From contig JBCNUU010000006.1 of the NCBI GenBank assembly GCA_039630545.1, positions 39,949 through 103,948 of the forward strand: a DNA stretch of 64,000 nt, written 5' to 3'. Source of the stretch: Endomicrobiia bacterium. Its GTDB lineage: Bacteria; Elusimicrobiota; Endomicrobiia; DTEH01. Below are positions 57,267 through 63,592 of the stretch, piece after piece. The translations under genes were made by a program, and so were the position numbers. Within the stretch, counting starts at the first letter, position 1; each line of letters opens with the position of its first letter. Under the pieces are notes generated by a model that was not told where the DNA came from, ran no database searches, and saw nothing but the letters and a program-made list of their open reading frames with translations.

Positions 57267-58466
57267 TCAGTATAATGGAGAGATTTTTCTTATTTTTTCT
57301 ACGATTTTAGGAAAGACATCCAACACATAATCAATATCTTCTTCTTTGGTAAATCTACCAAGTGTAAATCTGATAGACCCTCTTGCCAACACAGGATCCA
57401 AACCTAATGCAGCTAACACATGCGAAGGTTCTAAACTGCCAGAACTACATGCACTTCCTGAAGAAACACAGATATTTTCTCCATCAAGAGCTATAAGTAA
57501 AGATTCACTTTCTACGCCTACAACTGAAATATTTAGATTATTTACTAACCTGTTTTCTAAACTTCCATTGATAATTACATCTGGTACTTTTTTGAGAATA
57601 CCATCTAATAGTTTATCTCTTAATAATTTTATTTTCTTATTTTCTTCTTCCAGCTGTTCATATGCTATCTGCGTGGCTTTATAAATCCCCATAATACCAC
57701 TTAAATTTAGAGTAGATGATCTCTTGTTAAATTCGTGCCCTCCACCATGCAAAAGAGGTTCTATTTCTGTGGTTTTTCTTATGTATAAAAATCCAATTCC
57801 TTTCGGTGCATAAAACTTATGACCACTTGCTGAAAGTAAATCCACATTTATTTCTTTAAGATCTATTTTTAAATGACCGAATGTTTGTACAGCATCTGTA
57901 TGAAAATATATTTTTGGTTTGTTTTGTTTTTTTCTTTCTTCGTTTACTATTTTTAATCTATCTGCGATTTCCTTTATTGGCTGAATTGTACCTATCTCAT
58001 TATTTGCATGCATAACAGAGATTAAAATTGTATCATCAGAAATACTCTCAAAAATTTTTTCTATTTCCACTATTCCATTTTTATTTACAGGAACATAAGT
58101 TACCCTTGCACCTTCTTCTTTAAAATTTTCTACTATAAATTTTACAGGTTCTAAAACTGCGTGATGTTCTATAGTAGTAGTAATAATATGTTTTCCTCCC
58201 CGTTTTCTATTCGCAAAATAAATGCCTTTTATCGCTGTATTATTTGACTCTGTCCCACCAGAGGTAAAAATTATTTCTTCTGGATGACAGTTCAAAACTT
58301 CGGATATAAACTTTCTTGACTGCTCTATAGCTTTAAAACTTTCTTGACCAATAGAATGGATACTTTGTGAATTGCCAAAAATTTCAAAAAAATAGGGTTG
58401 AATAAAATCTTTTACTCTAGGATCTACAGGAGTTGTAGCTGCATAATCAAGATAGATTTTTTTCAT
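57267..58466 (-). CDS. iscS: Cysteine desulfurase (canonical)
   Basis: YLDYAATTP, HTDAVQ, SGHKFY (PLP Lys), SSGSACSS. Confidence 0.95.
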   Translation of the reverse strand: MKKIYLDYAATTPVDPRVKDFIQPYFFEIFGNSQSIHSIGQESFKAIEQSRKFISEVLNCHPEEIIFTSGGTESNNTAIKGIYFANRKRGGKHIITTTIEHHAVLEPVKFIVENFKEEGARVTYVPVNKNGIVEIEKIFESISDDTILISVMHANNEIGTIQPIKEIADRLKIVNEERKKQNKPKIYFHTDAVQTFGHLKIDLKEINVDLLSASGHKFYAPKGIGFLYIRKTTEIEPLLHGGGHEFNKRSSTLNLSGIMGIYKATQIAYEQLEEENKKIKLLRDKLLDGILKKVPDVIINGSLENRLVNNLNISVVGVESESLLIALDGENICVSSGSACSSGSLEPSHVLAALGLDPVLARGSIRFTLGRFTKEEDIDYVLDVFPKIVEKIRKISPLY

Positions 58467-58473
58467 TTTAAAA

Positions 58474-59016
58474 TCACCTTATTTTTTTACCACAATTACT
58501 ACATGTTTCTTTAAACTCAACTAATTTCCCACAATATGGACATTTGGTAATCTGTTTTTCACACTTTTCGCATTCCATAATTTCAGCGCATGGCAAATCT
58601 TTGTCACAAAATGGACATTTACATAACAGTGGATGTATTTTCTTTTTTGTGAGATAATCTTCTATTGCTTTATGTAAAGCATCAACTCCTAAATTGGAAC
58701 AATGCATCTTCTGAGGAGGCAAACCACCTAGATTTTCTGCTACCATTTCCCGTGTAAATTTTAAAACCTCATCAATCGTTTTCCCCTTTGCCATTTCTGA
58801 AACCATAGAAGAAACAGCTATAGCTGCACCGCAACCAAATGTTTTATATTTTACATCTTCTATTGTCTTTCCATCAGAGCTGATTTTTATATAAAAAGTC
58901 ATAAGATCCCCACAAACCGGATTGCCAACTGTTCCTATACCATCGGCATCCGGAATCTCACCTACATTTTTAGGATTCATAAAATGCTCCATAACTTTTT
59001 CTGAATATTGACTCAT
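58474..59016 (-). CDS. iscU: Fe-S scaffold IscU/NifU-N with C-terminal double zinc-ribbon extension
   Basis: NPVCGD, TFGCG, LPPQKMHC; C-terminal CPFC/CEKC/CPYC/CSNC. Confidence 0.93.
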   Translation of the reverse strand: MSQYSEKVMEHFMNPKNVGEIPDADGIGTVGNPVCGDLMTFYIKISSDGKTIEDVKYKTFGCGAAIAVSSMVSEMAKGKTIDEVLKFTREMVAENLGGLPPQKMHCSNLGVDALHKAIEDYLTKKKIHPLLCKCPFCDKDLPCAEIMECEKCEKQITKCPYCGKLVEFKETCSNCGKKIR

Positions 59017-59103: not shown

Positions 59104-60378
59104 TTAAATCATCTCCTTATTTATATGGCTGTGATCATCTTCATAATCAGTTCCAGGACCCGCTTGCATTCGCTTCCCCGTCTTTAAAAAATAAGAATAT
59201 AATGGTGAAAGGCTTCTTAAACGTTCAATTATTGGGGGTAACTCTTTCAATAAATACTCAACCTCTTCATCTGTAGTGTATTTAGAAAGTGTAAATGTTA
59301 CAGAACCCTGTGCCACAGCAGCGTCTACCCCAATTGCCTCAAGCACATGAGAAAGTTTTAATGCTTTAGATGTGCAAGCAGAACCACTTGTTACATAAAT
59401 ACCTTTCTGATTAAGAAGCAACAAAATACTTTCACCTTCAATAAATTCAAAAGAAAAATTTATATTATTAGGTAGTCTATTCACAGGATGACCATTTAAA
59501 TACACATATTGAATTTTTTGGGGAACATCATGTATAATTTTATCTCTTAACTTTATCATTTTTTGAAAGTTTTCTTCAAGATGATTTTTAGCAATTTCTG
59601 CTGCTTTCCCTAAACCTACAATACAAGCAACATTTTCAGTCCCAGCGCGGCGTCCATCTTCTTGAATTCCTCCATCAATTTGTGGAACAATTTTCGTACC
59701 TTTTTTTAAGAATAAAGCTGCTGCTCCTTTAGGACCATAAAACTGGGAACCAGCTAATGACAACATATCAACTCCTAACTGTTGAACATCAACATCTATA
59801 ATACCACAAGCAGCAACTGCATCTGTATGTAACAAAGTTTTTATTTGCTTATTTTTTCTTTGATTGTTAAACTCTCTTATAATTTCTGCAATATATTTTA
59901 TCGGCTGAATTGTGCCAATTTCCGGATTAGCAAGTTGAACAGAAACTAAAATTGTGTCCTCTCTTAAAAGATTTTTAAGCTCATCTAATTTTACAACACC
60001 ATAGCTATCCACCGGTAACAAAGAATACTCAATACCAAAGAGCTGTTTCATTCTTTTTGCAGAATATAAAACTGATAAATGTTCTATAGATGATACAATA
60101 ATGTGTTTAGAATTAGTATTATTATTTAACATAATACTACCTTTTATAGCAAGATTGTTCGCCTCAGAACCACACGAAGTAAAAATAATTTCTTGAGGCG
60201 AACAATTTATTAATTTTGAAACCCTTTCTCTTGCTATATCTATCGCTTCTTTTGCTTTCTGACCTAGCTCATGTAAACTCTGAGCATTTCCATAATTATC
60301 TTTAAGATAAGGCAACATCTCCTCTAAAACTAAATCGTCAATCTTTGTAGCTGAATGATTATCTAAATAAACCTTCAT
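59104..60378 (-). CDS. IscS/NifS paralog lacking the PLP lysine (AGSQFYGPKG)
   Basis: Full-length IscS-like sequence, HTDAVA, SGSACTS Cys retained; HK replaced by SQ. Confidence 0.9.
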   Translation of the reverse strand: MKVYLDNHSATKIDDLVLEEMLPYLKDNYGNAQSLHELGQKAKEAIDIARERVSKLINCSPQEIIFTSCGSEANNLAIKGSIMLNNNTNSKHIIVSSIEHLSVLYSAKRMKQLFGIEYSLLPVDSYGVVKLDELKNLLREDTILVSVQLANPEIGTIQPIKYIAEIIREFNNQRKNKQIKTLLHTDAVAACGIIDVDVQQLGVDMLSLAGSQFYGPKGAAALFLKKGTKIVPQIDGGIQEDGRRAGTENVACIVGLGKAAEIAKNHLEENFQKMIKLRDKIIHDVPQKIQYVYLNGHPVNRLPNNINFSFEFIEGESILLLLNQKGIYVTSGSACTSKALKLSHVLEAIGVDAAVAQGSVTFTLSKYTTDEEVEYLLKELPPIIERLRSLSPLYSYFLKTGKRMQAGPGTDYEDDHSHINKEMI

Positions 60379-60618
60379 TTTTTCTTCCTCACATAACCTA
60401 TGTAAAAATTTTTCTCTTTTTTAATCCTAAAAATTCTTCTCCTGCTGTGTTACACCAAGCAGGAAAATCTTTTTCAAAACCAGAATCATCAGAAATAACT
60501 TCTAAAATTTCTCCTTTATTCATTTTTCTAATTCCAATTTTGTTTTCACAACAGGCATAGGACAAAAAAGTCCTATACAATCTAATGTTTTTGTTGGTTT
60601 TATATCAAAACTATTCAT
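60375..60618 (-). pseudogene. tusA: Sulfurtransferase TusA with two single-base frameshifts in A-runs (pseudogene or assembly error)
   Basis: LDCIGLFCPMPVVKTK...LEK / MNKGEILEVISDD...DFPAWC...GEEF / YIGYVRK; corrected stop overlaps the next ATG (ATGA). Confidence 0.85.
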
Positions 60619-61541
60619 AAGTTACCAAAAAATGTATTAAATAAATAACCACTTAATAATGAAAATGAAATTATCAATGTAAGATATAAAATGAGTATTT
60701 TTGTACCAAATTCTTTTTTTACAACAAGAATTGTAGCATAACTAGTAAGTGGACCTAAAATCAACAAAACCAAAGAAGGCCCCAACGCAAGCCCTTGTTT
60801 ATTCAAAGCATAAACTAACGGAACAGAAGCTGTTGAACAAATATACATCAAAACTCCAAATACTACTGAAAAAATATATCCATAAACCCCGTATAAAAAA
60901 TTTTCTACAAAAAATTTTACAACATTTAAACTACTTATAAAACTTGCTAACACTAAACCAATAAAAATTTCTAAACCAATCTCTTTAGGTAAATATATAA
61001 AAGAATATCTTAAAACTAATAAAATTTTTTGCCATAACGTTTTTTTAGGAATAAACTGTGATATAAACTCCATCATATCTGGTGTTAATTCTTCTTCTTT
61101 AACATAATTATTAGAAGTATCTATTAAATTTCCTATTATACCAATTAAAAAACTTAAAGCTATAACACTTAAACATAAAAACAATGTAAATTTTACACCA
61201 AAAAATTTTACAGATATTAAAATTGAAGATATAGAAGTTGCCGGTGTTGCAACAATAAATCCCAAAATATTACCTAACTTAACACCTTTTTGCCTAAATC
61301 CAACAGCCATAGGTAAACTACCTATACAACATATAGGTAATATCATTCCTATTACTATTATAGAAAATAAGGTAAAAAAATTTTTCTTCACTAGGTATTT
61401 TCTAACTAAATTTGCTGGTATTAATTCATAAAAAATACCACTTAACAAAAATCCAACTACTAAAACTGGAAAAATCTCTATGATATAATGTTTTAAATTA
61501 AATAAAAAACTTTTAAAAAATTCAACAAAATTTATATTCAT
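60615..61541 (-). CDS. Permease, ArsP/DUF318 family
   Basis: LPICCIGSLP, ATPATS, MYICSTASVP, LGP; multiple TM helices. Confidence 0.85.
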   Translation of the reverse strand: MNINFVEFFKSFLFNLKHYIIEIFPVLVVGFLLSGIFYELIPANLVRKYLVKKNFFTLFSIIVIGMILPICCIGSLPMAVGFRQKGVKLGNILGFIVATPATSISSILISVKFFGVKFTLFLCLSVIALSFLIGIIGNLIDTSNNYVKEEELTPDMMEFISQFIPKKTLWQKILLVLRYSFIYLPKEIGLEIFIGLVLASFISSLNVVKFFVENFLYGVYGYIFSVVFGVLMYICSTASVPLVYALNKQGLALGPSLVLLILGPLTSYATILVVKKEFGTKILILYLTLIISFSLLSGYLFNTFFGNL

Positions 61542-61996
61542 TATATAAAATATTCTAACCTTTTTTGACTACTTAAATATTTATTAACTATATCTTCAAA
61601 ACTTATATTGTTGACTATCTCTTGCAGTTGTTTATCTATTTGTTGCCAAATTGGAACAAAAACACAATTTTTTTCTTTACATTTTTTTGAAAAATTCTCT
61701 TCAAAGCATACAATTTGGAGAAGATTACCCTCTAAAAGTTTTATAACATCACCCAGAATAATCTGTTTAGGATGTTTTGCTAAACATATTCCACCTTTTA
61801 CACCCTGTATAGTACGTATATAACCAAATTTTTTTAGTTGTAAAACAATTTGTTGTAAGAATTTGTAAGGAATGTTATGCTTTTTAGAGATATCTTTCAT
61901 CCTTAATATATTCCCATATTTCAAAAATTTATCATAATTTAAAGCAAGTTCTAAAAGTAATCTAAAAGCATAATCTGTTTTAGTTGATATTTTCAT
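61541..61996 (-). CDS. Rrf2 family transcriptional regulator (IscR/CymR-like) with three Cys
   Basis: STKTDYA, FLQQI, G.KGG..LA, C....C....C. Confidence 0.92.
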   Translation of the reverse strand: MKISTKTDYAFRLLLELALNYDKFLKYGNILRMKDISKKHNIPYKFLQQIVLQLKKFGYIRTIQGVKGGICLAKHPKQIILGDVIKLLEGNLLQIVCFEENFSKKCKEKNCVFVPIWQQIDKQLQEIVNNISFEDIVNKYLSSQKRLEYFI

Positions 61997-62029: not shown

Positions 62030-62780
62030 TCAATTTTTTATTTTATAGAACAAATTTTTATGATGTTCACAGAACAACTTTGAAAATTTCAATTTTTTGT
62101 TTATATTATTTACTTGTTCGTAAACTTCTGAAAACCAATGATTGTTAAAATGTAAACAAAAACTATAATTGCAAAACCCTTCATCAAAAAATATGTAGAA
62201 AATACACTGAATAACATATTTTAACAAAAACTTAAATAAATTTTTATTGACAAGATTGTAAATATCTTCTTTAATTCTTTCTCCAACTTCCGGCATTATA
62301 TTTTTTATATTATAGTAATCTTTATATAAAGCTAATGCTTTTGTTAACCCTTTAATAGATATTATACATGGGTATCCTAATACAACAACTCTACTGTGAT
62401 ATCTTTTATCTGTATCATCAAATGTCGCTACAATCCTTTCAGTAAACACAATATGACACTCTTTAAACTTAGGTTTTATACAATTAAAATAAACTTCTTG
62501 TAATCTAAATCCATCATATAAATGATTATTGTTTAGCTTATTATACAAATATTTATTTTCAAAATTTCTTTCTTCATCAAACCAAAAGTCAGGAATTTTA
62601 TTAGAATAAATATCTATTTATTTTACAAAGCAAAATATTATCAACCTCAACAATTTTACCCCACCATAACTCCCTATAATAAAAACTCAAATTTAGTATA
62701 TCAAAAATTTTTTTAACTGTCGCAGCCAAATCTTTTGTTTCCCAGAAAGTGTCTGTTAAATAACAAAAAACTTTATACAT
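62030..62780 (-). pseudogene. Putative metallopeptidase-like protein (DUF6775-like), frameshifted near 62620
   Basis: MYKVFCY...CKI / IDIYS...LYDGFRLQ...HIVFT...RYH...C.L....FCEHH; removing one A joins the frames. Confidence 0.5.
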
Positions 62781-62784
62781 ATAT

Positions 62785-63564
62785 CTAAAAAAATACTTGT
62801 TTATCAAAACCTCAGCTGCTTTCTTTCCAGATAAAAGCATAGCACCAAAAGTAGGACCCATCCTAGGCAAACCAAAAACCGTTGAAACAGCCATACCACA
62901 CACAACTAACCCGGGATAAATCTCAGATGTATATTCAACTATCATATCTTCAGATTCTTCAACCCACATAGCACCAAAACCTTTCGTCTTAATAAGACCT
63001 CTTTCTTCTAATTTTTTTACTACATAAGCATCATGCCCTGATGCATCAACTACAACTTTAGATTCAAGCCCTACAGGATCAACACAGGTTATTTCTCTTG
63101 GCAAAGAATGAACTGGTGTTCAGTTTACAACAACGCCAGCTATTCTATTTTCTCTAATTATTATATCATCAAAAACTGTCATATTAGCAAATTTCACACC
63201 AGCATCACAAGCTGTAGCTATAAGTTTAGAACAAGCATGAGGGCCATCTGCTACAATACAAACCTTTTGCTGCTTTTTCATATGGTATTTTAAGCTCATC
63301 TAAAATTTTTTCTGAAGGTTCCCTTACTGTAATTTTATTCATTAAATAACCACCAATCCAAAAACCACCACCTATATAGTTGTTTCTTTCTATTAAAACT
63401 TTAAGATTTCTTAAAGCAAGCTCTTTACCACACATAAGACCAGATGGACCTCCACCTACAATTATAACATCACTTTCAGCATATAAAGAAAATTGTTTTA
63501 AAAAACTTTCTGTTATTGCTTTTGTAATATCTTTTTCTGTAACCTTTGCAAAAATTTTCCCCAT
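62785..63564 (-). pseudogene. thi4: Thi4-type thiazole synthase, disrupted
   Basis: [41 protein letters not shown]; +1 frameshift near 63255, TGA at the Trp codon 63120-63122, stop codon lost in a T-run. Confidence 0.9.
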
Positions 63565-63592
63565 ACTTATCCTCCTTTTTATCAAAAAAATA

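Follow-up and report, generated by a model that had tools for sequence, protein, structure and literature searches.

A conserved IscS homologue lacking the Schiff-base lysine as a probable partner of the IscU scaffold

Introduction

In the window, which is the whole stretch of 64,000 nucleotides analysed here, an iscU gene lies between two iscS genes, one of which encodes a protein (hereafter IscS*) without the lysine that holds PLP as a Schiff base. This raises the question of what a desulfurase-like protein does beside IscU once this lysine is gone. A Lys-less IscS beside iscU has already been published for Archaeoglobus fulgidus (Af) and for the isc1 locus of Methanosarcina acetivorans, and a passage of PMC8918507 poses as a question why the Af IscS is inactive and where the sulfur of such IscS-IscU pairs originates. 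For the bacterial Lys-less clade, which carries Gln, Thr or Val instead, no description was found in a literature search that had most subscription journals outside its reach. The original prediction for this locus envisaged an active desulfurase paired with a non-catalytic IscS and coupled to TusA, a DUF318 permease and an Rrf2 regulator.

Active site and fold of IscS*

The intact ORF with a glutamine at the PLP lysine was confirmed, as were the DAVA motif, the cysteine of SGSAC and the GTDYEDDHSH tail described for it (Table 1). Gln212 is surrounded by SLAGSQFYGPKG, the counterpart of which is SASGHKFYAPKG in the canonical neighbour, and the two proteins share 43% identity. Alignment to E. 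coli IscS also revealed three replacements that had gone unmentioned, namely Arg354 by Thr361, Asn155 by Pro152 and His205 by Ser211. The residues kept are His104 (His100 in IscS*), Asp180 (Asp186), Thr243 and Cys328 (Cys335).

Table 1. Features of the iscS* locus (positions in the window)
Feature	Position	Strand	Remarks
Canonical type I cysteine desulfurase	57267..58466	minus	keeps His, Asn, Asp, Gln, His, Lys, Thr, Cys, Arg
iscU	58474..59016	minus	between both iscS genes; passes TIGR03419; ligands GNPVCGD, FGC, KMHC all present
8-Cys double zinc-ribbon-like domain	58477..58644	minus	C-terminal fusion on IscU; separate small ORF in many relatives
iscS*, Lys-less IscS/NifS-fold protein, 424 aa	59104..60378	minus	intact ORF; profile, sequence and fold matches
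C-terminal extension, TGxR...AGPGTDY and Glu/His-rich end	59107..59181	minus	low pLDDT from residue 408
Thr361 for E. coli Arg354 (substrate carboxylate binding)	59296..59298	minus	Arg in 0/120 best homologues
Mobile loop, Cys335 (SGSAC) to Lys341	59356..59376	minus	alignment; Cys335 invariant (120/120)
Gln212 (CAG) for E. coli Lys206 (PLP Schiff base)	59743..59745	minus	alignment to E. coli IscS and homologues
Ala189 for E. coli Gln183	59812..59814	minus	alignment
Pro152 for E. coli Asn155	59923..59925	minus	Pro 108, Ser 7, Thr 5 of 120
Cys69 (SCGSE; E. coli Gly74, beside phosphate-binding loop)	60172..60174	minus	116/120 best homologues
tusA pseudogene	60375..60618	minus	two single-base deletions versus intact relatives; stop overlaps iscS* start
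ArsP_1 (PF03773) permease	60615..61541	minus	linked to iscS* only within family f1 loci seen
Rrf2-family regulator, three Cys	61541..61996	minus	superfamily model only; under IscR, CymR and NsrR cut-offs

The overall architecture is that of an aminotransferase of class V (PF00266 match), and the predicted model of IscS* (pLDDT 85.5) matches IscS/NFS1 structures with TM scores of 0.83–0.89. No curated NCBIfam model is passed by IscS*, the best being TIGR03402 with 474 bits against a cut-off of 531; the canonical neighbour also stays under this cut-off (502 bits) and passes NF002806 as its sole model. In the protein-cluster atlas, IscS* falls in generic desulfurase clusters. A promoter scan performed at chance level (34 found versus 32.8 expected), and no RNA run was among the matches in a sequencing-run search.

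Published variants of E. coli IscS bear on the replaced residues. According to passages of PMC9978102, desulfurase activity is absent from K206A and from Q183E, R354K is still active, and K206A still binds some PLP. Because R354K is active, the loss of Arg354 is by itself weaker evidence; in the IscS* family, the residue is Thr, Leu or Val instead. Since five such active-site residues are absent (Asn155, Gln183, His205, Lys206 and Arg354), desulfurase activity is very unlikely and IscS* is very likely non-catalytic, although it resembles E. coli IscS in its fold, in the Cys loop of type I and in the helices that contact IscU. Judged from its residues, IscS* stands outside the family of active cysteine desulfurases.

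Conservation and phylogeny

A sequencing error or a decaying pseudogene would explain the missing lysine too, and the adjoining tusA gene is indeed broken while the upstream thi4 gene is split in the assembly. Against this, lysine occupies the Schiff-base column in none of the 120 best homologues, query included (Gln in 92, Thr in 24, another residue in 4), as the follow-up of the predicted conservation of the loss showed. The letters of the gene are identical in contigs of three DNA runs, which belong to one study and are possibly the source of the window DNA. Across 14 loci checked, the Gln codon is both CAG and CAA. Neither Arg354 nor Asn155 occurs in any of the 120 proteins, whereas His100, Asp186 and Cys335 are invariant and Thr243 is retained in 115.

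The same pattern holds in a class sample of 41 genomes (the class being probably Endomicrobiia), in which related genomes do not count as independent and fragmented assemblies are frequent. Asn155, His205, Lys206 and Arg354 are lost in 34/34 IscS* orthologues and all retained in 34/34 canonical paralogues. The dN/dS of IscS* is 0.10–0.21 (seven pairs, with dS near saturation), indicating purifying selection, and over the 34 genomes the mean pairwise identity of IscS* is 62% versus 57% for the canonical paralogue, the pairs not being independent. Within family f1, to which the window belongs, dN is instead lower for the canonical gene (7/7 pairs). Based on the homologues, the class-wide conservation and the dN/dS, we reject error and decay, whose probability is close to nil, as the original prediction had expected for error.

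The closest relatives among the best 120 are Endomicrobia/Endomicrobiia by source name (68–76% identity), which makes this class the probable origin of the window; sequences at a greater distance bear the names Elusimicrobia, WOR-3, Thermodesulfobacteriota, Planctomycetota and Latescibacteria. In a phylum sample, a score at the IscS* level was reached in 66/69 class genomes versus 6/82 others, new genomes being assigned by score alone. A GTDB-wide contig scan, in which 80 of 572 stretches were kept, yielded 35 Lys-less loci; it is a sample and not a census. The hosts of these listed loci include Aminicenantes, Chloroflexota, Nitrospirota, Bacillota, Thermodesulfobacteriota, Bathyarchaeia and others. 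We gathered 336 near-full-length proteins after dropping rows below 85% coverage and duplicates. Of the 95 proteins without the lysine, 91 have also lost Arg354, while Arg354 is retained in 236 of the 241 that bear it.

The residue in the lysine column is not Gln throughout: it is Val or Ser/Met in family f4 (L017-L029, L177, L184, L196, L202-L206). Seven genomes (G006, G051, G059, G064, G066, G067 and G071) have two Lys-less IscS copies each, of differing subtypes in several of them. In the Bathyarchaeia genomes G062 and G070, a degenerate IscS (L165:2793-4013 and L167:1499-2722) keeps the lysine, lacks His104, Gln183 and Arg354, and adjoins IscU and a SufS-like gene.

Trees were built from 75 (free) or 74 (constrained) hand-picked rows drawn from the 336 proteins. 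After exclusion of the active-site columns, 25 bacterial Lys-less proteins cluster together with an SH-aLRT support of 96. Eight Asp-type proteins resembling that of A. fulgidus, for which they are stand-ins, branch elsewhere in the free tree on a weak backbone. A constrained tree joining the bacterial Lys-less and the archaeal Asp-type proteins scored 27 lnL above the quick free search (p-AU 0.75), so that a single origin of both groups would be compatible with the trees. No Archaeoglobus-named protein is among the best 120 homologues of a Bathyarchaeia Asp-type protein.

Features gained by IscS*

Beside these losses, IscS* carries a basic residue on the mobile loop, a cysteine near the phosphate-binding loop and a C-terminal tail. 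In 82/83 bacterial Lys-less proteins, a Lys or Arg stands at position 341 (Glu334 in E. coli), compared with Lys in 20/236 canonical ones; Lys is present there in 120/120 best homologues, and Arg replaces it in 8/47 tail-less members. Cys69 is less specific: it is present in 32/236 canonical proteins, in 12/34 canonical class paralogues and in 9/47 tail-less members. The TGxR...AGPGTDY motif, a trait of the subgroup that includes IscS* of the window, is found in 115/120 best homologues versus 0/34 canonical paralogues, and the approximately eight residues after it, predicted to be disordered, are 34% Glu and 30% His. In family f4, the tails often gain Cys (HCxIC, for example), a composition that would be suited to binding metal.

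Two simple readings of these residues were ruled out: Lys341 is not a general substitute for the Schiff-base lysine, as eight members have Arg there, and Cys69 is not a trait of IscS* only, as 12/34 canonical paralogues carry it. A broader form of this idea, in which IscS* is an enzyme of altered chemistry that uses non-covalent PLP or PMP, a lysine moved to the loop, or a metal/thiol site formed by Cys69, His100 and Cys335, would fit the invariance of His100, Asp186 and Cys335 and the presence of Lys341 in 120/120 and of Cys69 in 116/120 of the best homologues. Cofactor binding without the lysine also has precedents in PMP bound by Af IscS (in a passage of PMC8918507) and in the PLP of E. coli K206A (PMC9978102, in part). 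However, the Arg at position 341 in tail-less members indicates that a charge, not a nucleophile, is kept; Cys69 is rare in these members and is shared with canonical proteins; and the lysine column is free to accept Gln, Thr, Val, Ser and other residues. We consider an enzyme of this kind very improbable.

Linkage of iscS* to iscU and to the canonical iscS

IscS* and canonical IscS are each present in 40/41 class genomes (the IscS* copy of G021 is ended by its contig and was assigned by score), but they differ in their relation to iscU. In 35/41 genomes the scaffold gene lies at most 700 nt downstream of IscS*, and in 7/41 it lies no farther than 700 nt from the canonical gene; it neighbours IscS* alone in 30 genomes, the canonical gene alone in 2 (G006 and G009) and neither in 4. 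The iscU of the window is the sole NifU_N match in its genome (G000), and most of the 41 class genomes likewise have a single full-score match. SufB/D matches are found in 6/41 class genomes and not in G000 (95% complete), which also has no match to HscB or IscA at 1e-5. The canonical gene has mnmA within approximately 2.5 kb in 10/35 canonical loci fetched.

The IscU-facing surface is conserved in both proteins. Segments Glu309-Ala316 and Arg379-Lys391 of E. coli IscS contact IscU (PMC2854127, in part). Glu309, Gly310, Glu311, Arg381 and Ser384 are kept in 34/34 class IscS*, and Glu309, Glu311, Arg381, Ser384 and Pro385 are kept in the canonical paralogues as well (33–34/34). Neither paralogue retains Trp45 and Arg237, through which E. 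coli IscS contacts TusA. The family name of the zinc-ribbon domain on IscU comes from the protein-cluster atlas at scores below 0.8 and is a lead, and a predicted complex of this domain with IscS*, run without controls, had a score of 0.00. Four canonical-type desulfurases in the protein set (P0164, P0168, P0174 and P0204; 506–526 aa) have approximately 125–135 extra N-terminal residues, possibly regulators or scaffolds fused to the enzyme.

Beyond the class, the flanks of the 35 listed loci extend up to 6 kb, many being shorter. Within 3 kb of these loci we found iscU at 26, TusA at 23, a zinc ribbon at 16, DsrE at 11, NifU-C at 8, NadA at 7 and Rrf2 at 4, and neither the permease nor a canonical iscS at any. 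At the nine loci from which iscU is absent, some of them with short flanks, several have TusA only. An intact canonical type I enzyme is encoded elsewhere in 27 of the 35 genomes and a frameshifted copy in one more, and three of the others encode a Lys-bearing protein that resembles SufS. In G051, G056, G058 and G069 the search revealed no desulfurase with the lysine, and in G062, G070 and G074 no intact type I copy; the completeness of these genomes is not given.

These distributions bear on the main rival, an obligate two-IscS system in which canonical IscS makes a persulfide and passes it to Cys335 of IscS*, within a heterodimer or by trans-persulfidation, for delivery to IscU. The predicted placement of two iscS genes around iscU is true of the window, yet the genes lie within 3 kb of each other in just 9 of the 39 class genomes that have both, the window's included, and at none of the 35 listed loci; they are unlinked in the other 30 and more than 350 kb apart in G023, G026 and G030. 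The two proteins could still cooperate in trans, because canonical IscS is present in 40/41 class and 27/35 listed genomes. The retention of Thr243 in 115/120 homologues favours the relay as well; this residue completes the PLP site of the partner subunit. The case is strongest in genus g6, whose small genomes have no match to TusA, DsrE or SufB (0/7 each), so that no persulfide donor other than canonical IscS is apparent in them. On the other hand, a canonical IscS is expected regardless, for tRNA thiolation, the listed genomes in which no Lys-bearing desulfurase or no intact type I copy was found would lack a donor of this type, and both A. fulgidus copies are inactive (in an excerpt of bioRxiv 2024.03.20.586028). 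We therefore regard the relay as unlikely.

TusA, DsrE and other neighbours

The tusA gene in front of iscS* in the window is a pseudogene with the same frameshifted letters in all three DNA runs (one study, possibly the window source), and DsrE (PF13686) has no match in G000. Across the class, TusA is matched in 24/41 and DsrE in 18/41 genomes, several of the matches being merely domains in long unrelated ORFs, and all seven g6 genomes that match neither keep IscS*-iscU. The coupling to TusA therefore did not hold up, and TusA as an obligate partner is ruled out. The conserved core is IscS*-IscU, with TusA and DsrE as common but dispensable companions. The DUF318 permease matches Pfam ArsP_1, and neither it nor the Rrf2 regulator (near 0/35 and 4/35 listed loci, respectively) can be counted as a conserved part of the system. 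What stands of the original two-IscS reading is a conserved, very likely non-catalytic Lys-less IscS; the linked unit of two IscS proteins, TusA, permease and Rrf2 does not.

In family f4 (G025, G028, G030, G034, G035 and G037), TusA and DsrE domains are fused in an ORF of approximately 800 aa, which we take to be possibly NAD(P)H persulfide reductase-like and a candidate source of sulfane sulfur. In close relatives of family f1 (L188 and L218-L221), the operon comes with nadA and sometimes with cysK and a ThiI-like PP-loop gene; G000 has nadA and cysK together at the start of contig C5. The window also contains thi4 (TIGR00292-like, a sulfide-dependent thiazole synthase), split into two ORFs (62601-63585, minus strand). 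All three DNA runs have seven extra letters at 63120, so the split may be assembly- or strain-specific, and a second thi4 match of G000, making two family matches in total, is on contig C1. A DUF6775/DUF7001 gene (62030-62548, minus strand) encodes 172 aa compared with 274 aa in the relative L187, and the DNA runs lack 62067-62112 and have one base added at 62130. More than one relative has this gene placed with thi4 on one side and the sulfur operon on the other.

Genes for stress and iron handling often adjoin IscS*, including those for flavodiiron protein, rubrerythrin, desulfoferrodoxin, Fur, ferritin, rubredoxin and thioredoxin reductase. Such neighbours would suit a holdase or regulator, with canonical IscS loading IscU and IscS* capping the cluster by its cysteine to store or protect it under oxygen or iron stress. 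The lack of HscB and IscA matches in G000 fits this role, as does the IscS cysteine that serves as a cluster ligand in the Af complex (PMC13066941, in part). It would nevertheless leave unexplained the genomes in which no canonical type I enzyme was found, as well as the TusA (23/35) and DsrE (11/35) neighbours of the listed loci. Moreover, Fe-S operons of anaerobes lie near redox-stress genes anyway, and such a setting is usual for them. A holdase function is accordingly quite unlikely.

Comparison with known IscS-IscU systems

The comparison with A. fulgidus IscS made in the original prediction was apt: IscS2 of this archaeon is the best PDB match of IscS*, with an E value of 4e-111 by sequence and 47–49% identity at an rmsd of 1.6–1.9 Å by fold. 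The structures compared were those of IscS2-IscU (PDB 4EB5, 4EB7 and 4HVK) and the D199K variant (4R5F). Both proteins lack the Schiff-base lysine, His205 and Arg354 and have Ala for Gln183; both keep His104, Asp180 and the loop cysteine and are paired with an intact IscU. They differ in the lysine column (Gln in IscS*, Asp in Af IscS2), at Asn155 (lost in IscS*, kept as NNE in Af) and at loop position 341 (Lys in IscS*, Gln in Af). Cys69, the 25-residue AGPGTDY-His/Glu tail and the zinc ribbon on IscU are on the side of IscS*. The hosts differ too: the genome studied here has an active-type IscS and lacks a SufB match, while both IscS copies of A. fulgidus are inactive and SufBC is present (in an excerpt of bioRxiv 2024.03.20.586028). 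Af IscS2 is described as inactive, as binding PMP and as giving a Cys ligand to the [2Fe-2S] cluster of IscU (passages of PMC8918507 and PMC13066941). In the bioRxiv excerpt, iscS2U2 of A. fulgidus did not complement E. coli without ISC and SUF, even with added sulfide; since the canonical iscSU of Methanothrix also failed, this test does not discriminate.

The isc1 locus of M. acetivorans, comprising IscS1 (MA0808), IscU1, DrsE (MA0809) and a SirA-like protein (MA0810) in a passage of PMC7585200, is likewise a Lys-less IscS beside iscU with an active IscS elsewhere in the genome, and many relatives of the present locus have DsrE/TusA-type neighbours as well. By contrast, the tusA of the window is frameshifted and G000 gave no DsrE match; the intact pair occurs in many relatives. 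IscS1 has lost His104 and kept Arg354 (EDF, SAHT, GSVRF), a pattern that differs from that of IscS*, and is, too, an uncharacterised protein.

The minimal MIS system of MisS and MisU, described in part of PMC13066941 as a two-component IscS/IscU pair without chaperones or carriers, resembles the present case in the one NifU_N match and the lack of HscB and IscA matches in G000. MisS is, however, a cysteine desulfurase by definition, whereas the class-wide companion of iscU here is the Lys-less gene; iscU of the window adjoins both types.

Discussion

The sequences give a consistent outline, in which the Schiff-base lysine and both substrate-carboxylate residues are lost, the fold, the loop cysteine and the IscU-facing helices are kept, and the gene travels with iscU. 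We consider it probable, though well short of certain, that IscS* does not act as an enzyme but serves the cell's sole IscU scaffold as a dedicated partner, of the same kind as Af IscS2. IscS* would dock IscU via the conserved contact helices, and Cys335 would swing towards the IscU cluster to act temporarily as the fourth ligand of [2Fe-2S], to carry sulfur, or both. The sulfur carried by Cys335 would not be extracted from cysteine by IscS* itself. It might arrive as sulfide or sulfane sulfur, with TusA and DsrE as optional carriers; the basic loop (Lys338 and Lys341) might steady anionic sulfur or grip IscU, and the His/Glu tail and the zinc ribbon might handle metal or electrons. Canonical IscS would then serve mainly tRNA thiolation and other acceptors. 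A sulfide supply has a precedent in E. coli, where sulfide rescues cells without iscS only if IscU is present (PMC13015791, section 3.4), and G000 has the two matches to the sulfide-dependent thiazole synthase family.

Several observations count against a dedicated partnership. The canonical paralogues keep the contact residues and could feed IscU directly, and iscU stands with the canonical gene only in G006 and G009 and beside neither gene in four genomes. In E. coli, sulfide-fed assembly on IscU proceeds with no IscS (PMC13015791). The preferred reading thus leaves unexplained why IscS* is needed.

A bolder proposal, possible but doubtful in our view, is that the class builds Fe-S clusters independently of cysteine. 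A pseudo-desulfurase with parts of its own (the basic Cys loop, Cys69 and a His/Glu metal-binding tail) would work with IscU and the 8-Cys zinc ribbon, fed by sulfide or sulfane sulfur, and the active desulfurase would serve tRNA and cofactor thiolation only. If true, genes annotated as "cysteine desulfurase" would conceal a distinct Fe-S assembly system, which would be the ISC-type equivalent of the SMS system that uses sulfide. As one operon encodes all three proteins, the sulfur source could be addressed in one reconstitution with a natural internal control.

The Af protein is treated as exceptional in the cited papers; here, almost every genome of a bacterial class encodes such a protein, alongside a single IscU and a separate canonical IscS, and SufB is mostly missing from these genomes. 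Many genes of anaerobes labelled as cysteine desulfurase or MisS are therefore probably inactive, which bears on surveys of the distribution of Fe-S systems.
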